Virus record (IMG/VR): IMGVR_UViG_651053023_000008
Strand: one strand, 5' to 3'
From: a virus
Lineage: Duplodnaviria; Heunggongvirae; Uroviricota; Caudoviricetes
Length of the DNA stretch: 32,525 nucleotides
In this document: in pieces, positions 8,722 to 31,879 of the stretch
How positions within the stretch are numbered: position 1 is the first letter of the stretch
Layout of the letters: each line of letters opens with the position of its first letter
The notes under the pieces: generated by a model
The model's database searches: none
Told to the model about the DNA's origin: nothing
The model's input: the letters and a program-made list of their open reading frames with translations, nothing else
Program-made: the position numbers and the translations under genes

Positions 8722-9103
8722 CGCAGAGAAAAATGAAATTAAATCCGCATCCGCCAGCACCAGAAAGCATCTTCATGATTTTTATGTTGCCTATAACCAG
8801 TGGTTAAAAAATGGTGTACCAGAAACAGAGGGTGAAATATTTGTTCAATATTCAGGATTATGTACAAATGCTTGTCGTTATTTTGACGAAATCGGAGTGG
8901 ATACCGAAGATATATTAGAACAATTACGTGCAGATTTTATCGCGAACGAGTTGGATGAATTATTACCTTTCAATGAAAGTGGAACGCACTATCATGAGGA
9001 ATGCAGACTTGGCAGATGTCACCTGAATTCTGCTCGTGTGGCATGGGTCGAAAAACACTGCATTAAGGAGATGGGACATAATGAGCCGCACATCCCTGAT
9101 TAA
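8714..9103 (+). CDS. hypothetical protein (AT-rich moron)
   Basis: 129-aa ORF; visibly AT-rich compared with flanking phage genes; Cys and His rich C-terminal half. Confidence 0.5.
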   Translation: MNNAEKNEIKSASASTRKHLHDFYVAYNQWLKNGVPETEGEIFVQYSGLCTNACRYFDEIGVDTEDILEQLRADFIANELDELLPFNESGTHYHEECRLGRCHLNSARVAWVEKHCIKEMGHNEPHIPD

Positions 9104-9632
9104 ATTAATTCATGTCGCCCGTCGGGAATTGCAACTTGACGATGACACTTACCGCGCCTTTCTGGTGCAGTGCACGGGCAAAACCAGTTGCCGCGAGCTG
9201 TCCGTTGCACAACTGGAACGGGTGCTCGATGCCATGAAAGAGCGCGGTTTTAAGAAGCAGAAAAAACATCCCCGCCGTCGCTTTAAGGGGCATGTCACAC
9301 CACGCGAGAAGATTTACAAAATCTGGCAGCAGATGTTTCTTGATGGTTTCGTCTCCGATATCAGCGACGCCGCGCTGGACAAATACGTTGAACGCCTGAC
9401 GGCCAGACGTAATGGCGGTCAGGGTGTTTCCACGCTGGCCTGGTGTCACGGGGAATCGTTGCAGGTTGTGCTCGAAACGCTCAAACAGTGGCACATGCGC
9501 TGCATCCGTGAAGCCTTTGCCCGACATGGTGTGCCTTTACCTGTAAGCCCATCCGGGCGGGAACTGCGCGGCTATGATGCACTGACCAGTGCATATGCCC
9601 GCGCACGAAACAGCGGGAGAATTGCTGTATGA
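9081..9632 (+). CDS. gemA: GemA-like protein (Mu gp16 family)
   Basis: Internal ATG 9081 with an AAGGAG ribosome-binding site; 183 aa; position immediately upstream of mor; N-terminal LIHVARRELQLDDDTYRAFL motif. Confidence 0.65.
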   Translation: MSRTSLIKLIHVARRELQLDDDTYRAFLVQCTGKTSCRELSVAQLERVLDAMKERGFKKQKKHPRRRFKGHVTPREKIYKIWQQMFLDGFVSDISDAALDKYVERLTARRNGGQGVSTLAWCHGESLQVVLETLKQWHMRCIREAFARHGVPLPVSPSGRELRGYDALTSAYARARNSGRIAV

Positions 9633-10078
9633 AACAGATGAAAGAGCAGGATTTGTTCGAAGACCTTCGGGACGACAGCGTTCTGGAATATCTTCATGAT
9701 TACCAGGAAAACACCGCTTATCCGGCGTTACTTTCTGAACTGAACGCACTGCTGCGTAAAGAGCTGGCCCGGATTGGCGCAGACCCTGCCCATTCCCTTG
9801 AGCTGGTTGTGGCGATTTGTCGCCATATCGGCGGGATGCAGGTTTATGTTCCGAGGGGGAATATTCTGGAGAATCTTGTCCGGGATATGCGTATCTGGCG
9901 TGATTTTAACGGCCATAATATTCCTGAACTGGTTCAGCGTTACGGGGTGACGTATAAAACCGTCTACAAGGCCATCAAACGGATGCGACGTCTGGAGCGC
10001 AATAAATACCAGCCGGATTTGTTTTACCTCTCCCCGAACCTGCCTCACCCCGTTCGTCGTCCGCCACGACGCCCTTAA
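9629..10078 (+). CDS. mor: Mor/C-family transcriptional activator
   Basis: 149 aa with a Mor-family C-terminal HTH (VYVPRG...IWRDFNG.N..EL..RYGV....VYKAIKRMRR), located at the end of the early operon and followed by a terminator. Confidence 0.8.
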   Translation: MKQMKEQDLFEDLRDDSVLEYLHDYQENTAYPALLSELNALLRKELARIGADPAHSLELVVAICRHIGGMQVYVPRGNILENLVRDMRIWRDFNGHNIPELVQRYGVTYKTVYKAIKRMRRLERNKYQPDLFYLSPNLPHPVRRPPRRP

Positions 10079-10084
10079 TCAATG

Positions 10085-10108
10085 AAGCCGGTAAATCCGG
10101 CTTTTTTT
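10085..10108 (+). terminator. rho-independent terminator after mor (stem AGCCGG, loop TAAAT, stem CCGGCT, T7)
   Basis: Perfect 6-bp stem hairpin followed by seven T, 7 nt after the mor stop. Confidence 0.7.
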
Positions 10109-10122
10109 ATGCCTCCGGCACC

Positions 10123-10752
10123 ATGAAGCAGACCACGTTTAACTCTGCTTCACAGGTGCTTTTTATGGAAAATCTAAAATTATATCTGGCCTTTGAGCGT
10201 GCGCTGAATTTTATTCTGCGTCCTGATATCGAAGGCGTCTATGTCAATGACCCCACTGACCGTGGCGGAGAAACCAGGTACGGCATCTCTGACCGCCGCG
10301 ACGGTGTGATTGACGGCAAAACTGACGTCAACGGTGATGGTAAACCCGACACCCGCATTAAGGATTTTACCCGCGAACAGGTTGCGCAGATTTACTGGCG
10401 CGATTACTGGCTGCCTGCCGGGTGTGACCAGTGGCCTGACAGAGTGGCGCTTTTTGTGTTCGATGCGGCGGTTCAGCATGGTGTTAAAAAAGCCATCAAA
10501 CTTTTGCAGGAAGCCACTGATATCAATGCCGATGGCATCATCGGCCCGCGCACCCGCAGGGCCGTGAACCTGGCTGACCAGAACTGGTTGCTGACCCGCT
10601 GTATTGTCCGTCGTTCCCGCTTTTATGCCGAAATCATCAAATCAAAACCCGCCCAGGGCAAATACCTGAACGGCTGGTTTAACCGCATGGAAAAACTGAC
10701 CGACGCCTGTCTGGAAATCATCGACAACGCGCCGTCCACCACGCGGGGGTGA
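10123..10752 (+). CDS. endolysin, GH108-like N-terminal domain plus peptidoglycan-binding C-terminal domain
   Basis: EGVYVNDPTDRGGETRYGI motif typical of glycoside hydrolase family 108; no N-terminal transmembrane segment. Alternative start at ATG 10165 (MENLKL) has a better ribosome-binding site. Confidence 0.75.
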   Translation: MKQTTFNSASQVLFMENLKLYLAFERALNFILRPDIEGVYVNDPTDRGGETRYGISDRRDGVIDGKTDVNGDGKPDTRIKDFTREQVAQIYWRDYWLPAGCDQWPDRVALFVFDAAVQHGVKKAIKLLQEATDINADGIIGPRTRRAVNLADQNWLLTRCIVRRSRFYAEIIKSKPAQGKYLNGWFNRMEKLTDACLEIIDNAPSTTRG

Positions 10753-10753
10753 T

Positions 10754-11389
10754 ATGGGCAAAGGCTGGGATGCCTCACTGAAAGCCGGGCGGCGTGACCG
10801 CCTGCGTCAGGAGGTTCTGCACCGCATGGCCGGAGGTCCGCCCCCGAAACCGCTGGACTATACCGGCCATGACGGCACACACGCCAGCTACTACATGCGT
10901 GGCTGGAACTCCGTGGATACACGGGACATTTTCTGGCAGTGCCAGAAGTACAGGGAAAAATTCAATGTGGAAAAAGGTAATGAACAAAATTTTAAACTGT
11001 GTGACTGGCTGCTTTGTTCCCGACTGATGAGAACCCCATGGCCGCTGGCCGGACTGACACTCTGCATGTTCATCATCAGCATGTTATGTGGCTGGCGATC
11101 GTTCGTGTTGATGTTGTTGTCCTTTGCCGGGGTGGTGTTGTTTTCATACAGCGCAAGCCTCGGGAATGTGCCATTTCGCCTGCTGCCTGAGGTCCGTTAC
11201 CGGGCTTTTGGTCGCCACATCATCGTGTGGTCATGGGTGGTCTGGGCGCTGGGATATTTCTGCTGCGTCTTCAGCACGCTGATGATGGTGTCACCGGTGC
11301 ATCCGGTGTTCTGGCTGTGTGGTGGCTGTTGCGGCGGTCTGCTCTGTCTTCAGCGTTATCTGTATGGAGGTTTCCCGTGGATCCGTTAA
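10754..11389 (+). CDS. putative lysis-cassette membrane protein (soluble N-terminal part plus about four predicted TM helices); holin candidate
   Basis: 211-aa ORF immediately after the endolysin; the C-terminal 120 aa are strongly hydrophobic. Confidence 0.4.
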   Translation: MGKGWDASLKAGRRDRLRQEVLHRMAGGPPPKPLDYTGHDGTHASYYMRGWNSVDTRDIFWQCQKYREKFNVEKGNEQNFKLCDWLLCSRLMRTPWPLAGLTLCMFIISMLCGWRSFVLMLLSFAGVVLFSYSASLGNVPFRLLPEVRYRAFGRHIIVWSWVVWALGYFCCVFSTLMMVSPVHPVFWLCGGCCGGLLCLQRYLYGGFPWIR

Positions 11390-11985
11390 CCCTTTCAGGC
11401 ATCGCCTCTGTTCTGCTGAAAGCCGGGCCGGGGCTGATTCGTTCCGTCGGGCGCTGGTTTGGTGGCAGTACATCTGCCGCCGCTGACTCGGTGGCCGGTA
11501 TGGTGGAAAGCGTCCGGGAAAGCCTGCCGGTGGCTGAACAGCAACGCATTCTGGAACAAAAACTGGTGATGCTGTCACCGGAGCAACTGATGCAGCTGGA
11601 AACCCTGAAAGTTCAGCTGCAACAGCTGGAGGTGGAGCGGCAGAAGCTGGTGCTGGCTGACCAGCAGGCCGCACACCACGAACAGCAGGAAACCATCCGC
11701 AATGGTGACAACGCCACGGACAGCTATGTGCGCCAGACACGCCCGCTGCTGGCCCGCCTTTCCTGTTACAGCAGTCTGGCCTATGTGCTGTTGCTCTCCT
11801 GCGGCCAGATTGCCGGAGCCATTGCCGGTGCCAGAGGTATCACGCTGCATATGCCATCACCGGACTGGGATATCACGCTGATGTTGCTTACCCCGGCGCT
11901 GGGCTATCTCGGTGTAAGAACCCTTGACGGCTTTGCCCGTTACAGCAAATCAAGCCGTCACAAAATGTCTGCGGGGCCGAAATGA
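11377..11985 (+). CDS. putative membrane protein with central coiled coil and C-terminal TM segments (lysis-associated)
   Basis: GTG 11377 preceded by a GGAGG ribosome-binding site at 11366-11370; Leu/Gln-rich heptad region; two hydrophobic segments near the C-terminus. Confidence 0.5.
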   Translation: MDPLTLSGIASVLLKAGPGLIRSVGRWFGGSTSAAADSVAGMVESVRESLPVAEQQRILEQKLVMLSPEQLMQLETLKVQLQQLEVERQKLVLADQQAAHHEQQETIRNGDNATDSYVRQTRPLLARLSCYSSLAYVLLLSCGQIAGAIAGARGITLHMPSPDWDITLMLLTPALGYLGVRTLDGFARYSKSSRHKMSAGPK

Positions 11986-12209
11986 CCGACGAAATCGATC
12001 GCATCAGTGAAGTGGTTCTGAACGAGCGTCAGAGCGTCGTTAAAGCCTGGCAGACACGGACAAAAGAAGCGCCCCACAGCCGGGGCTTCTGCAATGACTG
12101 CGGGAACGTTATTCCGGCACAGCGCCTTGCGGCGCTGCCGGATGTGGTGACCTGTATTGACTGTCAGCAGATGCGGGAACGCAGGAGGAAATCGTGTCCT
12201 GGGAAATGA
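11982..12209 (+). CDS. TraR/DksA-type C4 zinc-finger protein
   Basis: 75 aa with CNDCGN...x17...CIDC four-cysteine motif. Confidence 0.7.
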   Translation: MTDEIDRISEVVLNERQSVVKAWQTRTKEAPHSRGFCNDCGNVIPAQRLAALPDVVTCIDCQQMRERRRKSCPGK

Positions 12210-12499
12210 TCCGGGCCAACTGGCCCATTCTGTGGGCATTGCTGATGACAGGAATAAACCTGCTTCAGCTGATTCTGGCGAAAACCTACGTCAAACGCGA
12301 AGAGTTTGATTCACTCCGTTCCCGCATGTCGGTGATGGAAAGCCAGGTACACCATTTACCCGACCGTGATGAGTTCCACCGCCTGCAACTGGATATCAGC
12401 AACCTGCGGGGAGAAATCAAAGAGCTGGGGCCATCCATCCGCCAGGTATCCCGCATCAGCGATTTGTTATTAGAGAACGAGTTAAAGGAAAAAAAATAA
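12194..12499 (+). CDS. small membrane-anchored coiled-coil protein
   Basis: 101 aa; N-terminal TM segment (WPILWALLMTGINLLQLIL) then a charged helical region. Confidence 0.55.
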   Translation: MSWEMIRANWPILWALLMTGINLLQLILAKTYVKREEFDSLRSRMSVMESQVHHLPDRDEFHRLQLDISNLRGEIKELGPSIRQVSRISDLLLENELKEKK

Positions 12500-12792
12500 T
12501 GGCGATGAAAGAGATCCTCACTGAAGACCGTCGTCTTGTGTTGCTGCGTTCCCTGCTGGACTGTGGCGACAGCGCGAATGAATCCGTGTTGCAGACCTGC
12601 CTTCAGGCCTACGGTCATAAGGTATCCCGTGATGTGGTGCGCACCCAGCTTGCATGGCTGCGCGAGCAGGGGCTGGTTCGTCTGTCTGATGTGGGCGGCT
12701 GTTACGTGGCTGAAATCACCGGCAGCGGTGAGGATGTGGCAAACGGCCTGTCCGGCGTTCCGGGCGTTAAAAAACCCCGTGCGAGGGACTGA
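12499..12792 (+). CDS. hypothetical protein (winged-helix-like)
   Basis: 97-aa ORF, translationally coupled to neighbours. Confidence 0.5.
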   Translation: MAMKEILTEDRRLVLLRSLLDCGDSANESVLQTCLQAYGHKVSRDVVRTQLAWLREQGLVRLSDVGGCYVAEITGSGEDVANGLSGVPGVKKPRARD

Positions 12793-12794
12793 GC

Positions 12795-13094
12795 ATGGCC
12801 CGAAAACTGAAGCCGTTAAGTCGCGGAGAACGGGCCGTCGTGCGGCAGCTAGCGTACTGTCTTGTGCTCGCGGATATTGAGCAAAACGCCATTGCCTGTG
12901 CATACGAACAACAGACCGGAAAGCCCTGGAACCCGGATGCACCGGATACCCCCATGAAACGTGCCCTGCGTTCATCACCGGCATGTGCGCGGCTGTGGAA
13001 GCTGCTGGGTAAGGATATCCGCTCCGTTCGCGAAGAAATATACGCCGGTCTGAAAACACCGGGAACTGAAGACGGGGGCCGTCGTGAACCGTAA
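12795..13094 (+). CDS. hypothetical protein
   Basis: 99-aa ORF upstream of the terminase genes. Confidence 0.45.
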   Translation: MARKLKPLSRGERAVVRQLAYCLVLADIEQNAIACAYEQQTGKPWNPDAPDTPMKRALRSSPACARLWKLLGKDIRSVREEIYAGLKTPGTEDGGRREP

Positions 13095-13231
13095 AAAGAA
13101 TCCGATAAGTAAAGCGTCCCGTGATGAACTCCGCCGTCTGGCGCACAACCTGACATGGCGGGAAATCCAGAGCGGCGCACTGAAATCTGCATACGAAAGT
13201 TTACAGCGTAGTGAGCAACAGGAGGGCACAC

Positions 13232-13813
13232 ATGGAAAATGAACAACGCCCCACCCGTGGCCGTCTTTCCAAAGTGGATTTACTCCCGGACAGCATCCGG
13301 GAGCAGTTGCATCAGATGCTGCGGGAAAAGCGGCACACGCAGGAAGAAATCCGCGAAGCCATCAACGCCCTGATTGACGAACACAACCTGCCGGAAGAGA
13401 TGCAGTTAAGCCGGACGGGCTTAAACCGCTATGCCATCCGCATGGAAAAAGTCGGGGCAAAAATCCGTGCCTCCCGCGAAATGGCCGAAGTCTGGGCGGC
13501 AAAGCTGGGTTCCGCGCCGACGTCAGACGTCGGCAAACTGCTGATGGAGTTTGTAAAAACGCTGGCTTTTGAAACGTCCATGTCGATGGCAGAAGACGAC
13601 AAGCCCGTTGCACCGAAGGCGCTGGGGCAACTGGCGCTGGTTGCCCAGCGTCTGGAAGCGGCAGCCATGACCAGCCATAAACGCGAGAAAGCGATCCGTG
13701 ATGCGTTTGCGCAGGAGATGGCAGAGAAAACCGAAGAACTGGTCAGAACGGGCGGTCTGTCAGGCGGTGCGGCTGACACCATCAAACGAGACATTCTGGG
13801 GATTAGCGTATGA
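13232..13813 (+). CDS. Mu gp27-like protein (putative terminase small subunit)
   Basis: ATG 13232 with an AGGAGG ribosome-binding site at 13220-13225; position immediately upstream of the large terminase. Confidence 0.6.
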   Translation: MENEQRPTRGRLSKVDLLPDSIREQLHQMLREKRHTQEEIREAINALIDEHNLPEEMQLSRTGLNRYAIRMEKVGAKIRASREMAEVWAAKLGSAPTSDVGKLLMEFVKTLAFETSMSMAEDDKPVAPKALGQLALVAQRLEAAAMTSHKREKAIRDAFAQEMAEKTEELVRTGGLSGGAADTIKRDILGISV

Positions 13814-15345
13814 CACAAATGGATACGTTCAGTGAATATGATGTTCTGCTGCCGTATCAGAAACGCTGGGTGGCGGATGATGCCGACCTGAAAATTGCCG
13901 AGAAATCCCGCCGTACCGGTTTAACCTGGGCGGAAGCGGCGGATGCGGCACTGACGGCATCACTGAAGAAGGAAGACGGCGGGCGCGATCACTTTTATAT
14001 CGGTTCGAATAAGGAGATGGCCCGCGAATTTATCGACGCCGTGGCGATGTGGGCGAAAGCGTTTAATGCGGCAGCGGAAGAAATCTGCGAGGAAGTGATC
14101 ACCGACGAAGACAAGGACATTCTGACGTTCGTCGTGTACTTCGCCAGCGGTTTTAAGGTCAAGGCATTGTCCAGCAACCCGAGCAACATTCGCGGGATGC
14201 AGGGGAATGTCACCATCGACGAGGCCGCGTTCCATGAAAAACTGGACGAGCTGCTGAAGGCTGTGCTGCCGCTGAAAACATGGGGCGGCAAAATTCGCCT
14301 TATTTCCACCCATGACGGCGTGGACAACCTGTTTAACCAGCTGATTCAGGAAAGCCGCGCGGGCAAAAAAGATTACAGCATTCACACCATCACGCTGGAT
14401 GACGCCTGCAATGACGGGCTGTACCGGCGTATCTGTCAGGTGCGCGGCATGGTGTGGTCACCGGAAGCCGAAGCGGAATGGAAAGAAGGTCTGCTGCGAA
14501 ATACCGCCACCCGCGAAGACGCACTGGAAGAATATTACTGCGTCCCGAAAAACGGCGGCGGCACGTATATCCCCCGCTCACTGCGTGAACGTGCGGCCTG
14601 TGGCACCGGGAAAGTGTTGCGCTTTACCGGCACACCGGAATTTAACGCACTGACGGAAAGCCAGCGCCGGGCAGATATCCGGGAATGGCTGGAAACAGTG
14701 GTGCGCCCTGAACTGGAAAAACTCCCGAAGAACCTGCGCCACTGTCTGGGGGAAGACTTTGCGCGTTCGGGTGACCTGACCGTACTGGCCCCGGTGACGG
14801 TGAACGATGACACCACCCGCGAGGTGCCGTTTCTGGTTGAGCTTGGCAATGTGCCGTTTAAACAGCAGGAGCAGGTGCTGTTCTGGCTTTGCGATCGTCT
14901 GCCCCGCCGTGACGGCATCAAAATGGATGCGCGGGGGAATGGTCAGTATCTGGCAGAACAGGCGGCGGAGCGGTACGGCGACGAAGTGGAACAGGTGATG
15001 CTGTCCGTGGCGTTCTACCGCGAAAACATGCCCCGTTTCCGTGCGGCGTTTGAAGATGATGAGCTGATCCTTCCGAAGCATGAAGACGTGATCAATGACC
15101 TCGGGGCCATTCAGTTACTGCGTGGCGTTCCCGGCATTGATGATTCACGAACCAGAGGCAGCGACGGTCACAAACGTCACGGCGACGCCGCTGTGGCCAT
15201 TTTCCTGGGCTTCCTTGCCAGCAAGGATGACTGCCACCGTTACGAGCTGCACCGCCTGAACCGCCCGGCGAAACCGGAAGAACGCAACGCGCGCCGCCAG
15301 ATGAAGCTGACGCGCGGCCTGAAAAATGAGGGAGGTTTACTGTGA
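13810..15345 (+). CDS. terminase large subunit (Mu gp28-like)
   Basis: 511 aa; overlapping start and stop with neighbours; position between gp27-like and portal. Confidence 0.8.
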   Translation: MTQMDTFSEYDVLLPYQKRWVADDADLKIAEKSRRTGLTWAEAADAALTASLKKEDGGRDHFYIGSNKEMAREFIDAVAMWAKAFNAAAEEICEEVITDEDKDILTFVVYFASGFKVKALSSNPSNIRGMQGNVTIDEAAFHEKLDELLKAVLPLKTWGGKIRLISTHDGVDNLFNQLIQESRAGKKDYSIHTITLDDACNDGLYRRICQVRGMVWSPEAEAEWKEGLLRNTATREDALEEYYCVPKNGGGTYIPRSLRERAACGTGKVLRFTGTPEFNALTESQRRADIREWLETVVRPELEKLPKNLRHCLGEDFARSGDLTVLAPVTVNDDTTREVPFLVELGNVPFKQQEQVLFWLCDRLPRRDGIKMDARGNGQYLAEQAAERYGDEVEQVMLSVAFYRENMPRFRAAFEDDELILPKHEDVINDLGAIQLLRGVPGIDDSRTRGSDGHKRHGDAAVAIFLGFLASKDDCHRYELHRLNRPAKPEERNARRQMKLTRGLKNEGGLL

Positions 15346-16913
15346 ACCTGAAACAACTGGCCGGGGCCGTTCGCCGTCTGCTGAACCCGGCAACCGGTGA
15401 GGAAGACACGCTGAAAAAAGAGGCGCTCAACGAAGCACAGGCACGTCCGCGTCATGCCAGTGTGCGTTCGGCCTCGCCGGGCGTCAGCATTGCTTCCGGG
15501 CTGAATCCCGGCAGGCTGGCAGGCATTCTGCGCAATGCTGCCGACGGCACCACGCGTGACTTTTTTATCCTTGCTGAAGAGATGGAAGAACGCGATTTGC
15601 ATTACGCCTCGGTGCTGCGCACCCGCAAGCTGACGGTGGCGGGTATCGAACCGGTGGTGGTGGCCGCCAGTGATGACGATGCTGACGTGCAGCTGGCGGA
15701 CGCCATCCGTGCACTGATGGAAGCACCGCAAATCCCTGAGCTGATGTTTGATCTGCTCGACGGGCTGGGAAAAGGCGTGGCGGTCTGTGAAATTTTGTGG
15801 AACACCCGCAACAACCACTGGGTGCCCCGTGATTATGAGTGGGTTGATCCCCGTTTTCTGAAAGCCGAAAAACCCACGCTGCGCCAGTTCCGCCTGCTGA
15901 CTGACGATGAACCGGTGGATGGCGTACCGCTGACACCGGGAAAATTCATTGTTCACCAGCCGCGCCTGAAATCCGGTCTGCCGCTGCGTAACGGTCTGGC
16001 CCGTCTGGTGGCGGTGATGTACATGCTGAAATCCTTTACCGTGCGTGACTGGTGGGCATTCGCGGAAAAGTTCGGCATTCCGGTTACGGTGGGGAAATAC
16101 GGTCCCAACGCCACGGAGGAGCAAATCCGCGTGCTGATTGACGCGATTGCGTCCATTGCCTCGGATGCCGGGTGTGCCATTCCGCAGTCCATGCAACTGG
16201 AGATGCAGGAAACTGCCAGCCGGAATAACGGCGGCGCACTGTTCTGTGAAATGGCGGAATGGTGTGATGCGCAAATCAGTAAGGCCGTGCTGGGGCAGAC
16301 CATGACCACGGATAACGGCAGTTCGCGCTCACAGGCGGACGTGCACAATCAGGTGCGCATGGACATTGTGCGCTGGGACGCGCGGCAGCTGGCTAACACG
16401 CTGAATGAATTTCTGGTGCGGCCCTACATCGAGGCCAACTACGGGCCACAGGCGCACTACCCCCGTGTTGTTCTGCGTATCAGTGAAGCCGAAGATCTGA
16501 AGGCGCTGACAGATGCTCTGGTGCCGCTGATTGACCGGGGGATGCGGGTTCAGGAATCGGAGCTGCGGGACCGGTTCGGCCTGGCTGAACCGGACGACGG
16601 GGCTGATGTTCTGCATCCGGTTTCTGCCGGAATGTCAGGTGATATGGCGATGAACCGCGAGCGCGTCGCCCTGAACCGTGAACACTCCGACGAACTGGCG
16701 CTGATGGTGGATGATGCCCTGCGTGACTGGCAGAAAACCGGCGAGGTGTTCACGAACCCGGTGCTGACACTGGCGCAGGAATGCGACAGTTTTGATGACT
16801 TTCTGAAACGCCTGCCTGAGCTTCAGGAAACGCTGAACGCGGACGACTTTGCCCTGCAACTGGCGGAGGTGTGCTTTAAGGCCCGTGCGCTGGGGGACAC
16901 TGCTCATGCGTGA
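15342..16913 (+). CDS. H: portal protein (Mu gp29 / H-like)
   Basis: 523-aa ORF following the terminase; Mu-like portal family by sequence pattern and position. Confidence 0.8.
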   Translation: MNLKQLAGAVRRLLNPATGEEDTLKKEALNEAQARPRHASVRSASPGVSIASGLNPGRLAGILRNAADGTTRDFFILAEEMEERDLHYASVLRTRKLTVAGIEPVVVAASDDDADVQLADAIRALMEAPQIPELMFDLLDGLGKGVAVCEILWNTRNNHWVPRDYEWVDPRFLKAEKPTLRQFRLLTDDEPVDGVPLTPGKFIVHQPRLKSGLPLRNGLARLVAVMYMLKSFTVRDWWAFAEKFGIPVTVGKYGPNATEEQIRVLIDAIASIASDAGCAIPQSMQLEMQETASRNNGGALFCEMAEWCDAQISKAVLGQTMTTDNGSSRSQADVHNQVRMDIVRWDARQLANTLNEFLVRPYIEANYGPQAHYPRVVLRISEAEDLKALTDALVPLIDRGMRVQESELRDRFGLAEPDDGADVLHPVSAGMSGDMAMNRERVALNREHSDELALMVDDALRDWQKTGEVFTNPVLTLAQECDSFDDFLKRLPELQETLNADDFALQLAEVCFKARALGDTAHA

Positions 16914-17670
16914 AACCTTCATCCCGAAAGAGGCGCTGGCGTGGCTGAAGGCGAAGAAGCTGCGCCCCGGTTTTGATTACCGGGATGTATGGCGGGAAGA
17001 ACACCGGAACAGCTTCACCGTGGCAAAAATGCTGCAACTGGATTTGTTGTCGGATGTGAAAGCCCTTGTGGAAGACGCCCTGCAAAGCGGGCAGACGTTC
17101 AGCGAGTTCCGGGAGATGCTGCAACCGTTGCTGATAAAACGCGGATGGTGGGGCGTACAGGAGATGGATGATCCGCTGACGGGTGAAACCCGCACCGTGC
17201 AACTGGGCAGCGACCGCCGCCTCCGCACGATTTTTGACACCAACATGCGCACCGCCCGCGCGGCGGGCCAGTGGGAACGCATTCAGCGGACAAAGCGGGC
17301 CATGCCGTATCTGATTTATGAGCTGGGGCCATCCCGTGAGCACCGGGCGGAGCATGTGAAATGGGCGCGTCTGTGTCTGCCGGTAGATCATCCGTTCTGG
17401 CAGACACATTTTGCCCCTAACGGCTGGGGCTGCAAATGCACCATCCGTCAGGTCAGCCGTGGTGAGTATGCGCAACTGGCGGCACAGGGCACCATTCACA
17501 CCGAAGCGCCGGAAATCAGAACTGTCCGCTGGGTGAACAAACGTACGGGCGAAGAGGAAGAGGTGCCGGAAGGGATTGATCCGGGCTGGAACTACAATCC
17601 CGGCATAAACCGTGAGCAGGAGCTGGCGCGCCAGCTGGCGACCAAACAGGCCCGTTTTGACAGTGAGTAG
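16906..17670 (+). CDS. F: head morphogenesis protein, Mu F family
   Basis: Internal ATG 16906 overlapping the portal stop; 254 aa. Confidence 0.7.
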   Translation: MRETFIPKEALAWLKAKKLRPGFDYRDVWREEHRNSFTVAKMLQLDLLSDVKALVEDALQSGQTFSEFREMLQPLLIKRGWWGVQEMDDPLTGETRTVQLGSDRRLRTIFDTNMRTARAAGQWERIQRTKRAMPYLIYELGPSREHRAEHVKWARLCLPVDHPFWQTHFAPNGWGCKCTIRQVSRGEYAQLAAQGTIHTEAPEIRTVRWVNKRTGEEEEVPEGIDPGWNYNPGINREQELARQLATKQARFDSE

Positions 17671-17812
17671 CCCTCCCGCCGTAAATCCCCCTGAAACGCA
17701 TCAGAAACGCGTTTTTTATTCTGATGGCGTGAATGTGCATTCTGACGTTTTTGAAGATGCTGTGGCGTTTTTGAAGGGGGTTTTGAAGGGGGTGTTTCCC
17801 CGTTTTCAGTGA

Positions 17813-17835
17813 AGCCGGTAAATCCGGCTTTTTTT
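17813..17835 (+). terminator. rho-independent terminator (second copy of the element found after mor)
   Basis: Stem AGCCGG 17813-17818, loop TAAAT, stem CCGGCT 17824-17829, T-run 17829-17835. Confidence 0.7.
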
Positions 17836-17884
17836 CTGCCTTCCGCATACTGACCGTCGGTAACCCCAAACGACGGAGACTGAC

Positions 17885-18847
17885 ATGCAACCGGAACTGC
17901 TGGCGCTGTGTTTTTCCCTGCCAGAACCCATCCCTGAGCTGACACCTGCTCAACTGCCGGAATGGCTTGAACTCGTCCCTGCGGGTGAGTTCACCGGGCG
18001 CGATGGCCGGACGTGGATTAACCGCAATCCGCATGAGGTGGTCACCCGCTCGTCCGACATCAAAATTCCGGTGGACATTGAACACGCCACCGAAATTAAA
18101 GGGCAACGCGGTGATGAAGCCCCGGCGTATGGCTGGGTGGAAGAACTGCGCGTGACGGACAGCGGCACCATTGAAGGCCGTGTTGTCTGGAGCGAGTACG
18201 CCCGGTGGATGCTGAGCGAACGCCGCTACCGCTATTACAGCCCGGCGTTTTTCTTTGACGCAGACGGTGTGGTGACGCGCCTGTCCAGCGTCGGGCTGAC
18301 CAACAAACCTAACCTGGACTTTCCTGCACTGAATACGGAGAAAAACCCGATGACAGTACCTGTGCAAATCACCGGCCTGCTTGGGCTGGCTGAATCTGCC
18401 ACGGTGGACGATACCGTGGCCGCCATTAAACAACTTCAGGAGAACGAACAGGTGGCGCTGAACCGCGCACAGACACCTGACCTGACGAAGTTTGTGCCGG
18501 TGGAAACCCACAATCTGGCACTGAACCGTGCCGAAACCGCAGAACAACGCCTTCAGCAACTGGAAGAGAAGGAAGCAGAAGCGCTTGTGGATGCGGCCAT
18601 CGAAGCCGGAAAAGTGGCCCCGGCAAACCGTGACATGTTCCTTGCCACCTGCCGCACGGAAGAAGGCCGCAAACAATTTGCGGAATACACCAAAGGTGCA
18701 CAGCCGCTGGTGAACAACGACAAGCCCAGCCAGGGCAAGGATAAACCCGCGCAGACACTGACCGACGCCGAACTGGCGATGTGCCACAGCATGGGTATTA
18801 CCGGGGAAGAGTTCCTCGCCGCTAAACCTAAACAGGAGAATAACTGA
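17885..18847 (+). CDS. I: head maturation protease and scaffold (Mu I family)
   Basis: 320 aa; N-terminal protease-like domain, C-terminal Ala/Glu/Gln-rich helical scaffold-like region; directly upstream of the major head gene. Confidence 0.8.
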   Translation: MQPELLALCFSLPEPIPELTPAQLPEWLELVPAGEFTGRDGRTWINRNPHEVVTRSSDIKIPVDIEHATEIKGQRGDEAPAYGWVEELRVTDSGTIEGRVVWSEYARWMLSERRYRYYSPAFFFDADGVVTRLSSVGLTNKPNLDFPALNTEKNPMTVPVQITGLLGLAESATVDDTVAAIKQLQENEQVALNRAQTPDLTKFVPVETHNLALNRAETAEQRLQQLEEKEAEALVDAAIEAGKVAPANRDMFLATCRTEEGRKQFAEYTKGAQPLVNNDKPSQGKDKPAQTLTDAELAMCHSMGITGEEFLAAKPKQENN

Positions 18848-19749
18848 TGGGAGCAGTCACTTCCGAAGTCCTTCACGCGCTGACCACCTGTCTGAGCGCC
18901 GCTTATACCCGTGGTCTGAGTGGTGTCACCCCACAATGGCAGCGCATCGCCTCTGAAATCCCGAGTTCGTCCGCTTCCAATACCTACGGCTGGATGAAAG
19001 ATTTACCGGAGATTAAGGAATGGGTCAGCGCCCGTCAGATGGCAACGCTGGACGGTTATGGTTACACCCTTGCGAACAAAACCTGGGAAAGTTCGATCCG
19101 CGTTAAACGCGAACACATTGAAGACGATCAGATTGGTCAGTACAGCATTATCGCTGAACGCTATGGCCGCCAGACGTCGGAGTTCCCGGACAAGCTGTGT
19201 TACCCCCTGCTGTGTGCCGGGTTTAACACCCTGTGTTTTGACGGTCAGAACTTCTTTGATGAAGACCACCCGCTGGGCGACGGCACCTGCAGCAACGTTG
19301 TCGGCACCCCGGCATCAGACCAGGGAGAACCGTGGTTCCTGATTGATGATTCTCAGGTACTGAAACCCATCATCTGGCAGACGCGACGCGCCTTTAAGTT
19401 TGAAGCCCTGGATGATCTGAACAGCGAGCACACCTTCAAGAATAACGAGTTCCTTTACGGGGTGGACGGTCGCTGCAATGCGGGCTTCGGCTTCTGGCAG
19501 ACCGCCGTCGGTTCCCGTGCGGCACTGACAGCGGAGAACTACGAGAAGGCCAGCAATCTGCTGCTGGGTATGAAGGCCACCAACGGTGAACCGCTGGGCA
19601 TCCGCCCGACCACCCTTGTGGTGGGGCCGAAAAACCGTGCAGCCGCGAAGCGCATCATTGACGCCATGCTGGTTAACGGCGGCGATTCCAACATCTGGTA
19701 CAAGGATGTGGACATCGTGGTCAGCCCGTTCATCACCACCCCGGCATAA
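18847..19749 (+). CDS. T: major head subunit (Mu T family)
   Basis: 300 aa, ATGA-coupled to I; matches the Mu-like major capsid protein family in length and position. Confidence 0.8.
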   Translation: MGAVTSEVLHALTTCLSAAYTRGLSGVTPQWQRIASEIPSSSASNTYGWMKDLPEIKEWVSARQMATLDGYGYTLANKTWESSIRVKREHIEDDQIGQYSIIAERYGRQTSEFPDKLCYPLLCAGFNTLCFDGQNFFDEDHPLGDGTCSNVVGTPASDQGEPWFLIDDSQVLKPIIWQTRRAFKFEALDDLNSEHTFKNNEFLYGVDGRCNAGFGFWQTAVGSRAALTAENYEKASNLLLGMKATNGEPLGIRPTTLVVGPKNRAAAKRIIDAMLVNGGDSNIWYKDVDIVVSPFITTPA

Positions 19750-19832
19750 CCCGTCATCCGTAATCTGTTGTAACCCGCAATGACTGGCTGATTAGCTGTA
19801 TCGGCACCAACCTGTCACCGCACCCGGCGTGG

Positions 19833-20426
19833 ATGTGGGCCGCGTCATACGGCGCAACGGCAGCGTATCACCTTGCCATTGACCCGGCGCGTCCGCTTCA
19901 GACGCTGGTCCTGACCGGCATTCTGCCGCCTGCGCGTAATGTTCGCTGGGATATGCCGGAACGTAACCTGCTGCTGCATGACGGCATTGCCACGCACATG
20001 GTGGACGCCGGGGATAACGTCTGCATAGAGCGTGAAATCACCATGTACCGGGTTAATCAGTACGGTGATGCGGATGTGTCGTACCTTGATGTGCAGTCAC
20101 CCGCCACGCTGGGCCGTATCCGTTACATCATCAAGAACCGTTTCACGAACCGTTATCCGCGCCACAAGCTGGCAGATGATGACGTGCTGGACTCACTGGA
20201 TGCCGGTCAGCCGGTGATGACGCCGAAGCTGTGCACCGCAGAGCTGCTGGATATCTGCCAGACCGAACTTATTCCTGCGGGCCTTGTGGAGAACTTCAGC
20301 GATTACAAGGACACGCTTCAGGTGACACGCGACAGCAGCGATAAAAACCGTCTGAACTTTATCTGTCACCCGAATCTGGTGAACCAGCTGCGTGTGCTGG
20401 CAGGCCTGATTCAGTTCAAGCTTTAA
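19833..20426 (+). CDS. hypothetical tail-region protein; possibly the C-terminal remnant of a contractile-sheath gene
   Basis: 197-aa ORF. The reading frame is open upstream to 19764 with no start codon and no ribosome-binding site before ATG 19833; it sits where the sheath gene would be in Mu. Confidence 0.4.
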   Translation: MWAASYGATAAYHLAIDPARPLQTLVLTGILPPARNVRWDMPERNLLLHDGIATHMVDAGDNVCIEREITMYRVNQYGDADVSYLDVQSPATLGRIRYIIKNRFTNRYPRHKLADDDVLDSLDAGQPVMTPKLCTAELLDICQTELIPAGLVENFSDYKDTLQVTRDSSDKNRLNFICHPNLVNQLRVLAGLIQFKL

Positions 20427-28082: not shown

Positions 28083-28970
28083 ATGTTTCATGTGGATAAT
28101 CCGACGGGTGTGCCAGTGATGCCACCTGTCGCGGCTGAATTAAGCAAAACAACGCTTTATTTTACCGAAGGCGGGAACGGTATTCCGCCCACTTATCCGG
28201 GGCCGGACTGGTTTAATATTATTCAGTCTGAACTGCTGGAAATTCTCCGGCAGGCAAATATCAAACCGGATAAAAACACAACCGACCAGATTATGACAGC
28301 GCTGAAAAAAACTGTTTATTACGAACAGTGGTTCAGCCGGAGCTATTGCCGGATTAACCGGTCAGAATAATACGTTCCCGTATTTTACGGCGAAGACACA
28401 ATGGCATTAACGCCGCTCAGTGCTTTTGTGCGCGGTATTCTCGGGAAAAACACAGCCGGTGAAATTATCGACGCGCTTTTATTACGTGACACGGTAAATA
28501 AAGCTAATAGTGCTGTACCGAATACCCGCAGGGTCAACGGCATGGCTCTGTCTTCGGATATCACCATCAGCAACATCAGCGGCAACGCCGGAACGGCAAC
28601 CCGACTTCAGACGGCCCGCAGGATTAACAATGTGCTGTTTGATGGCAGCCGCGATATCACGATTTCTGCGGGAATGTCACAAACTGAAGGTGACAACCGT
28701 TACCAGCAAAAAAACACGGCGTCAAAAGCCGGTAATGGCTGGTTTAAGGACACGTCCACCGGGGTGATTATTCAGTGGGGGTATCTCGGCAATGCCAGTG
28801 CCGGGCTGACGTTTCCGATATCATTTCCGTCAGCATGTACCAGCATCACTATTACCAACGCATACACCCGTGCTGATTACTCTATTTCCCTGAAATCGTT
28901 ATCAGCAGCAGGTGCGACATTCAACAGCGAGAATAACGGCGTTATGTACTGGACAGCGATAGGGTATTAA
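28083..28970 (+). pseudogene. tail fibre gene (S-like) interrupted by two compensating indels (extra A in the A7 run 28305-28311; likely missing G at 28389-28390)
   Basis: Conserved fibre N-terminus (MFHVDNPTGVPVMPPVAAELSKTTLYFTEGGNGIPP). The fibre motif GLTGQNNTFPYFT is encoded in frame +1 between the two ORFs; the C-terminal ORF 28401..28970 continues with MALTPLSAFVRGILGK. Confidence 0.55.
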
Positions 28971-31004: not shown

Positions 31005-31570
31005 TGCAGATTAAAGAAATCACCAGCCCCCGTTATACCGAATCCGGTGCGATTGACTGCGACGTTCTGTTTGAGGAAATGGAAGCCCCTGTTCCCTACA
31101 CTGCCACGCCGGACGATACAGCGAAAACCGGTCAGCAAATCTGGCAGGAACTGCAAAGCGGAAAATGGGGTGAAATAACCCCGTTTGCCGTCACGCCGGA
31201 ACTTATCGCAGCGGCGAAGGATGCCAAAAAACGGGAGATTGAGGCATGGCGCACAGAACAGGAGGCGCAGCCATTCACGTTCGAATGGAACGGTCGTACC
31301 TGGAATGCTGGTCCCGATTCGATGGCTCGCATTGCGCCCGTGGCAATGGCCGCAAAAGTGGCAGGTGCACGGGCAACGCTGGGGTGGGGGGATGCAGCAA
31401 ACAGCCTTGTCACCATGACAATGGCGCAGCTTCAGGAGCTGGCAGCAACAATGGCGCAGGCGCAAACCGAGCGCAATACTGTGATTTATCGTCGTCAGCG
31501 TGAGATGAAAGAGCAGCTTTCCCTGTTGACCACACTGAACGAAATAAGAGCATTCACACCCGGCGATTAA
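31001..31570 (+). CDS. tail fibre assembly protein or chaperone
   Basis: 189 aa; ATG overlaps the fibre stop. Confidence 0.55.
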   Translation: MMQIKEITSPRYTESGAIDCDVLFEEMEAPVPYTATPDDTAKTGQQIWQELQSGKWGEITPFAVTPELIAAAKDAKKREIEAWRTEQEAQPFTFEWNGRTWNAGPDSMARIAPVAMAAKVAGARATLGWGDAANSLVTMTMAQLQELAATMAQAQTERNTVIYRRQREMKEQLSLLTTLNEIRAFTPGD

Positions 31571-31693
31571 ATAATCATTTTGTATAGTTTATGACGATCG
31601 ATAACATCATATCGATCGTCGGTTTGCATCATATGTGATTAAATACCCCCAGCCCTCCGGGCGGTCATGTCTGGTTATTACACAGGGGGAATC
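31571..31693 (+). promoter_or_regulatory. com and mom promoter region with Dam GATC sites (31596-31599, 31614-31617) inside 7-bp inverted repeats
   Basis: GATCGAT ... ATCGATC arrangement directly upstream of com, consistent with the methylation-sensitive upstream region of the Mu mom operon. Confidence 0.55.
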
Positions 31694-31879
31694 ATGGACT
31701 CTGTTCGCTGTAAAAACTGCAATAAATTACTGTTTAAAGGAGGTTTTAAGCATATAGAAATTAAATGCCCTCGCTGTAAACGTTACATTGTCATATCGAA
31801 TGCCAAAGAGCATCCCACGGAGCTGTATTGTGGGAAAAGAGAAGAAATCACGCATTCTGACAAAACCCTGCGTTATTGA
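31694..31879 (+). CDS. com: Com zinc-finger translational activator of mom
   Basis: 61 aa from ATG 31694 (AGGGGGA ribosome-binding site); CKNC...x16...CPRC zinc finger; overlaps the mom start. Confidence 0.85.

Follow-up and report, generated by a model that had tools for sequence, protein, structure and literature searches.

A Mu Pm-type promoter with an embedded terminator, predicted at two operon junctions of a Mu-like prophage

Each copy of a sequence element that is repeated at two operon junctions of a Mu-like prophage is probably a Mor-dependent sigma-70 promoter of the Mu Pm type, with an intrinsic terminator encoded in its operator region. The element was analyzed in a window of 32,525 nucleotides, which is the whole stretch of DNA under study (IMG/VR record IMGVR_UViG_651053023_000008). 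One copy lies between the early operon, which ends with the gene of the activator Mor, and the lysis genes; the other separates the minor head gene F from gene I.

A repeated element at two operon junctions

The 26-nt sequence TGAAGCCGGTAAATCCGGCTTTTTTT occurs exactly twice on the plus strand of the window, at 10083-10108 (copy A) and 17810-17835 (copy B), and gave zero matches in 100 dinucleotide-preserving shuffles with up to three mismatches allowed. A preliminary description of this DNA had claimed a 38-bp element at two operon junctions. The exact repeat bore out this claim, and the size proved too small: conservation runs from about 5 nt upstream (10079 and 17806) to the -10 hexamer described below. 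The trailing (A/C)TGCCT..CG(G)CA of that description is indeed present and is refined here as a spacer running into this hexamer. When the two copies were aligned, as had been suggested, an ungapped similarity of 49 nt at 86% was obtained (10072-10120 versus 17799-17847), which ranks among the longest direct repeats of the window.

Gene calls agreed with the positions first proposed, after mor and before the endolysin, and after F and before I. Copy A is preceded by genes encoding GemA (9036-9632) and a Mor-family protein (9629-10078) and followed by the gene of a GH108 endolysin; its hairpin begins 5 nt past the mor stop codon. Copy B is preceded by the portal gene (15342-16913) and an F-like minor head gene (16849-17670), and is followed by the I protease/scaffold gene (17885-18847); its hairpin lies 140 nt past the F stop codon. 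A profile HMM was built from the 52 distinct listed versions of the element, 51 of them in a Mu-like context plus the outlier L086, and found no third full site in the window. No Rfam family reached its gathering threshold anywhere in the window.

The 140-nt spacer between F and copy B (17671-17809) contains a hairpin with a run of T (CATCAGAAACGCGTTTTTTATTCTGATG) and three TTTTGAAG repeats in phase, and phased TTTTAAAC repeats are found at the equivalent position in relatives. In the Mu record, a strong gyrase site lies in the corresponding G-I intergenic region (cut site 17879-17880), of which the spacer may, by analogy of position, be the counterpart.

Homology to Mu Pm

In the Mu record, Pm lies directly past mor (9163-9233) and has inside it a terminator predicted by TransTermHP (9179-9200), which we take to be the early-transcript terminator t9.2. 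Mu Pm has the form AGTAAAGCCGGTTAATCCGGCTTTTTTT, 10 nt, TATCCT, and reads in full GTAAAGCCGGTTAATCCGGCTTTTTTT-ACGTCCTCAA-TATCCT; copy A reads ATGAAGCCGGTAAATCCGGCTTTTTTT-ATGCCTCCGG-CACCAT and copy B GTGAAGCCGGTAAATCCGGCTTTTTTT-CTGCCTTCCG-CATACT. Common to Mu Pm and the window are a nearly equal operator, the right arm CCGGC, a T7 tract, a 10-nt spacer and a -10 hexamer 22 nt on with no -35, as well as a site directly after an early operon that ends in mor, an orthologous activator and an embedded predicted terminator. This near base-for-base match, with a predicted terminator inside Mu Pm too, supports the terminator-plus-late-promoter unit that the preliminary description had offered as one option.

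In the Mor operator, which is centred at -43.5, a G/C-rich hexanucleotide stands between two A/T-rich inverted repeats of 5 bp (PMC4390567), and the Mu site has been footprinted and mutationally defined in published work. The Mu Pm operator, AGTAA-AGCCGG-TTAAT, differs at three positions from the predicted 16-bp operator of copy A (AATGA-AGCCGG-TAAAT, plus strand, 10081-10096) and at two from that of copy B (AGTGA-AGCCGG-TAAAT, plus strand, 17808-17823). Symmetry of the arms holds at 3/5 positions in both window copies versus 4/5 in Mu. Mu numbering was taken from published open-access work on permanganate-reactive bottom-strand T residues of Pm (-12, -4, -1, +1, +3 and +4), which are compatible only with a +1 at position 725 of L003; -57G and -54A, also published (PMC4390567), give matching numbering. 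Both window operators are accordingly numbered, as a prediction, -51 to -36. An A/T-rich TTAATC precedes that of copy A on the plus strand (10075-10080, predicted -57 to -52) and may correspond, by analogy, to the proximal UP (alpha-CTD) subsite of Mu Pm; a T-rich GTTTTC occupies 17802-17807 on the plus strand before the operator of copy B.

The -10 hexamers of both copies are on the plus strand, 22 nt past the operator. That of copy A, CACCAT (10119-10124), is weak, with 3/6 positions matched, and the TCCGGC at its -35 position has 1/6 consensus matches and does not constitute a -35 element. That of copy B is CATACT (17846-17851). No consensus sigma-70 promoter was called at either copy. Extrapolation from Mu geometry predicts transcript starts at about 10132 for copy A and about 17859 for copy B. 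The element therefore shows the sequence features of a promoter of the Mu Pm type, namely a 16-bp operator, a -10 hexamer 22 nt from it with neither a -35 nor an extended -10, and a mor gene in the early operon.

Superposition of hairpin and operator showed that the left arm of the hairpin coincides with the AGCCGG region of the operator spacer, the loop with the right half-site, and the right arm, CCGGC, with the -35 region. The G+C palindrome was also considered as the Mor dyad centred at -43.5 and was rejected: the operator is made of the A/T-rich arms around AGCCGG, and the palindrome is centred at about -38. What the preliminary description had missed is that the left arm and loop of the hairpin belong to the operator of the activator and are not merely beside a promoter.

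Mu Pm and the window also differ. Mu has one such site, which drives the middle operon (E18-E20 and C), whereas the window has two, proposed to drive the lysis/packaging and head operons directly, and has no C gene. In position, the window copies match Mu Plys and PI, which lie before the endolysin and before I, lack a -35, have a predicted terminator just upstream in the Mu record, and carry an activator element 22 nt upstream of the -10 hexamer; Pmom and PI of Mu, whose C-type sites have the right half-site ATAACC, share this spacing. Copy B has CCGCATACTGAC as its -10 region, identical at 11/12 positions to that of Mu PI, CCGCAAACTGAC, and looks like a PI core promoter with a Mor-type operator in place of the C-type one. 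The Mu promoters have the C-type right half-site ATAAC and require C, and their terminator hairpin stands apart, upstream of the C site; in the window the half-site is of the Mor type and terminator and operator overlap. Classification as a C-dependent late promoter of the Plys/PI type was rejected, the right half-site being TAAAT and not ATAAC and a C homologue being absent from the window.

A single Mor protein and its recognition helix

Gene mor (plus strand, 9629-10078), downstream of gemA, encodes a protein of 149 amino acids that matches the Pfam family Mor (PF08765, E 3.6e-30). Identity is 63% to Mu Mor and 32% to Mu C, and the helix-turn-helix region is nearly identical to that of Mu Mor (TVYKAIKRMRR versus TVYKAIRRMRR). 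No second Mor/C homologue was detected in the window by tblastn with Mu Mor, Mu C or the window's own Mor, and this protein is the presumed trans-acting factor for both copies. Mor is without activity on the C-type sites of Mu, which need C. With a single Mor orthologue and no C in the window, Mor most likely activates the lysis and head (I) operons directly. No Mor-type site was found in the window before the tail genes or com/mom.

Two variants of the hairpin loop, TAAAT and TTAAT, occur in nature, and in each genome examined the variant is identical at both copies. The variable base is the second of the right half-site (10093 and 17820; predicted -39), which is A in the window and T in Mu. 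Its best predictor in the protein is a column of the recognition helix, K117 in the window and R114 in Mu. A lysine was present at this column in 31/31 distinct listed Mor sequences linked to TAAAT and an arginine in 27/31 of those linked to TTAAT, and arginine never occurred with TAAAT. The K/R residue may be a specificity determinant for the right half-site. The correlation is only suggestive, with lineages that are not independent and K also occurring with TTAAT.

Termination signals and conservation of pairing

Both copies were returned by a terminator scan of the window, in line with the preliminary view of each as a plus-strand terminator hairpin. The predicted intrinsic terminator of the early (mor) transcript in copy A (plus strand, 10084-10108) consists of an 8-bp stem (GAAGCCGG/CCGGCUUU), the 5-nt loop UAAAU and a U7 tract (10102-10108), at -12.6 kcal/mol and z -3.2. 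The one predicted for the lysis/packaging transcript in copy B (plus strand, 17811-17835) has an identical 8-bp stem and 5-nt loop, with U7 at 17829-17835, at -12.8 kcal/mol and z -3.9. In its G+C-rich stem, short loop, U tract, energy and location after the last gene of an operon, the element is like canonical intrinsic terminators. It is unlike them in that its loop and 5' flank are conserved and a -10 hexamer stands at a fixed distance, because a predicted protein-binding function overlaps the terminator.

A stable G+C-rich hairpin with a U tract thus stands at the end of a transcription unit, and its pairing has been maintained in evolution. In 21 sites collected through the Mor protein, independently of the element, 97.6% of stem cells are paired, and the stem register outscores all slid registers. 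Stem cells with double changes number 8 versus 1.9 in shuffles, none of 500 shuffles reaching 8, and involve two pairs. The element-independent set includes 13 sites at early-operon ends before the endolysin (the 10 loci of the Mor search, L001, L002 and the window), and at all 13 a perfect stem is followed by T7-T8. Compensatory stems were found in several relatives, at the I copy as AAGGCGG..CCGCCTT in L013 and AAACCGG..CCGGTTT in L004, and as variants in L007 and L009; the other copy of these genomes, lys in L013 and L004, has the canonical stem, and each has one Mor. A compensated stem beside a canonical copy, with one Mor per genome, argues that pairing itself is under selection. The sites are related, and part of this signal could arise at the DNA level, the right arm lying in promoter-critical DNA.

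The double changes at two stem pairs, in genomes where the other copy is canonical and Mor is single, bear on the alternative that the element is a promoter only, with a self-complementarity imposed by the needs of Mor and polymerase on DNA and a hairpin and T tract that have no role in RNA termination. So do the 13 perfect early-operon-end sites, an energy and tail typical of intrinsic terminators, and the TransTermHP call on the Mu homologue, and together they make this alternative unlikely. In its favour, bases immediately downstream of the Mor operator have been reported to be critical for activation, which could explain conservation of the right arm, and the T7 tract falls inside the promoter spacer (-30 to -24 by Mu numbering). 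Moreover, several relatives have a degraded U tract, TTTCTTC, at the F-I junction beside an operator and a GACACT or CACACT hexamer that are kept, indicating that termination is not maintained universally at that junction.

Promoter signals conserved around the hairpin

A combined promoter and terminator, the reading preferred here, is also supported by conservation outside the needs of a terminator. In 51/51 distinct listed versions from a Mu-like context, a hexamer of the form nAnnnT follows the right half-site, at 22 nt in 49 and at 23 nt in 2; its A2 and T6 are invariant, and G comes next in 49/51. Listed versions further share CA[AG]TGA upstream of the hairpin and the loop T[AT]AAT. Among the 21 sites collected through Mor, 10/14 invariant columns lie inside the 16-mer, the onset of conservation coincides with the published operator boundary, and the loop is invariant except for one A/T position. 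Since the CA[AG]TGA motif, the invariant loop and the fixed nAnnnT hexamer are unneeded by a terminator, these features support a promoter function.

Were the element a terminator only, duplication or gene conversion would account for the identity of its two copies, and promoters for the late genes would lie elsewhere or be independent of Mor. Both copies are textbook terminators at operon ends and CACCAT is a poor -10, as this explanation would have it. It is nevertheless very unlikely: the conserved features just listed would be superfluous, the sequence is that of the footprinted Mu Mor site, the loop variant is concordant between copies and correlated with a residue of the Mor recognition helix, and no other promoter-like site was found before lys or I.

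Distribution among relatives

A search of other Mu-like genomes, proposed in the preliminary description, showed that the element is present in relatives. An exact-pattern scan of IMG/VR found it in at least 120 contigs, and the Mor-protein search, with one genome per species, yielded 10 loci from six genera (Pluralibacter, Raoultella, Klebsiella, Serratia, Kluyvera and Brenneria). Close relatives of the prophage are present in about 45-49 of 5,426 complete E. coli genomes. Records of the E. coli relatives annotate coding genes alone in these regions, and none of the 46 records with the window's F-I junction, among which the O157 Sakai genome does not figure, carries an annotation of these intergenic regions. 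When positions 9000-19000 of the window were compared by megablast with deposited phages, the sole match was Klebsiella phage Kp4866-3 (74% over portal/F), whose deposited, unannotated genome has both sites; a 65-nt blastn query with copy A, too short for the size of the database, found nothing among phages.

Among 145 listed occurrences in other contigs, 144 have a recognizable Mu-like context and one (L086) is unrelated. Ninety-eight lie upstream of a GH108 lysin gene: 85 of them directly after Mor, 5 with an upstream flank too short to tell and 8 in D108-like contigs. The F-I junction accounts for about 30 more. A further 14 are Pm sites of the Mu-like kind, where the next genes belong to the middle operon (E18, E19 or C), and 2 follow Mor in contigs that end before any downstream gene. 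Most listed contigs have an insert of 350-600 nt after mor. Where an additional gene follows mor, as in L002, this gene separates mor from the element, which stays directly before the endolysin, indicating that the element tracks the downstream gene.

In the eight D108-like contigs (loci L015, L022, L051, L073, L075, L111, L116 and L119), the order is Pm, a GH108 lysin gene whose product is about 71% identical to that of the window, E18 and C; in seven of these contigs the C protein shares 99% identity with Mu C. A lysin gene thus belongs to the Mor-dependent middle operon in phages that have C as well. Judged by gene order, the D108-like arrangement appears intermediate between that of the window and that of Mu.

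That the repeat is a recombination scar, a mobile repeat or a module joint with no regulatory role of its own is hardly credible: homology between the window and L002 does break within mor and resume at 10076, just upstream of the element, variable accessory genes between mor and the element mark a mosaic boundary, and the two identical 26-nt stretches might in principle allow loss of the intervening 7.7 kb, but the two copies stand alone in 32.5 kb at equivalent regulatory junctions, 144/145 listed occurrences either separate the Mor gene from endolysin or middle-operon genes or stand at the F-I junction, and a fixed internal geometry is conserved in at least 120 viral contigs and across the six genera. 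The scar offered as the other option in the preliminary description is therefore unsupported. No deletion product joining mor directly to I through the repeat was seen among the contigs examined. Assignment to a dispersed repeat, a mobile element or a curated RNA family was likewise rejected, given two copies in the window, no Rfam match and Mu-like contexts elsewhere.

An inverted repeat downstream of the -10 hexamer

Between the -10 hexamer of copy A and the Shine-Dalgarno sequence of the endolysin gene (AGGTG, plus strand, 10154-10158; start codon GTG 10156 or ATG 10165) lies an inverted repeat, GAAGCAGA..TCTGCTTC (plus strand, 10125-10151; -10.7 kcal/mol, z -5.3). Copy B has CCGTCG..CGACGG at the corresponding place (plus strand, 17854-17876; -9.7 kcal/mol), the 3' arm of which overlaps the Shine-Dalgarno GGAG of gene I (17875-17878; ATG 17885). 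Similar repeats follow the -10 hexamer in lys and I promoters across L001-L133 and in Mu PI (L003 9527-9550). They begin at the first base past the hexamer in 51/61 distinct listed relatives and end 1 nt before the Shine-Dalgarno sequence in 37/77 scored. The stem varies in sequence between phages, Mu PI included, and is fixed in position.

By Mu geometry the 5' arm would occupy -7 to +1 and be absent from RNA initiated at the promoter, so that the hairpin would form only in read-through RNA. No G-U strand bias was found that would indicate which strand's RNA folds (35 versus 39). Fold-back inhibition of translation is known from IS10 and IS50. By analogy, translational insulation of this kind is a possible role for the hairpin, as is stabilization of a processed 5' end.

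State of the prophage and other features of the window

The Mu-like prophage lies beside treA of E. coli: the flank (1-1800) shares 99.9% identity with E. coli DNA and the left end of the prophage is near 1826. Insertion sites differ among relatives: STEC1575 has the prophage beside pduA, and STEC346 has it in yhfX-like DNA. The window ceases to match the E. coli relatives L001 and L002 at 19779, just past the major head gene (region 19750-20426), and the ORF at 19833-20426 matches residues 300-493 alone of a tail-sheath profile of 493 positions. Together these indicate that the prophage is deleted and lacks head-completion genes, a G-like gene and the sequence for the N-terminal portion of the sheath. 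The element may in consequence be out of use in this strain.

The tail-fibre gene (28083-28970) is split, 28083-28370 corresponding to positions 1-78 of phrog_1833 and 28401-28970 to positions 171-312. The break (28348-28362) holds GCCGGATTAACCGGT. On the minus strand, CCGGTTAATCCGGC at 28348-28361 matches 14/14 positions of the Mu Pm palindrome core; it was rejected as a site, having no left half-site or T tract. Past it on the same strand come CACTGT, 22 nt on, and a hairpin plus T7 (about 28303-28330). The sequence CCGGATTAACCGG, as at the tail-fibre break, also occurs inside the hairpin downstream of the -10 hexamer in the lys promoters of L018, L023 and L077.

Genes com (start probably ATG 31694) and mom are present (window 31540-31700). 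The region upstream of them has a GATC-containing palindrome, GACGATCGATAACATCATATCGATCGTC, reminiscent of the Dam/OxyR-controlled GATC cluster of Mu Pmom. Neither a Mor-type nor an obvious C-type operator was found upstream of com/mom.

Discussion

As a control element, the repeat is of a largely understood type, represented by Mu Pm, where a Mor operator and an embedded terminator are combined. How it would work can be outlined on two levels. On DNA, Mor would bind A(A/G)TGA-AGCCGG-TAAAT, with a predicted centre at about -43.5, and would recruit RNA polymerase to a promoter with a -10 and no -35. On RNA started upstream, the G/C-rich spacer of the operator would pair with the CCGGC of the -35 region, and the resulting 8-bp hairpin followed by U7 would release the polymerase. 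Mor binding and termination in vivo are taken here from homology, conservation and covariation.

Early transcription from the left end would accordingly be expected to stop at copy A, past mor. Mor, the last or next-to-last early product, would bind copy A DNA and switch on the lysis/packaging operon, with transcription beginning about 24 nt beyond the U tract; this transcript would end at copy B, past F, where Mor would start the head operon at I. Combined in this way, the signals would insulate late genes from early read-through and may shield the operator from incoming polymerases. With no C gene in the prophage, two tiers of expression, early and Mor-dependent late, would replace the three of Mu. 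The combination of terminator and promoter already exists in Mu Pm; the window differs in using it twice and in lacking a C tier.

A broader scheme, possible but on balance doubtful, would have the 19-bp palindrome act at both junctions as Mor operator in DNA and terminator in RNA, with Mor as the sole late activator of widespread C-less enterobacterial Mu-like phages, the C tier of Mu as a later addition to which D108-like phages are intermediate, and the covarying repeat past the -10 hexamer as a further, translational insulator of late genes, formed only in read-through RNA.

Two intergenic repeats are hereby identified as regulatory elements, and start and end coordinates are predicted where annotation is blank. 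Natural operator variants, namely TAAAT and TTAAT with K and R, and spacers with compensating right arms, are usable for dissecting Mor specificity and could separate promoter function from terminator function. The results extend known biology and do not overturn it. They suggest that Mor, not C, is the late activator in most enterobacterial Mu-like phages, in which case the three-tier cascade of Mu would be exceptional.
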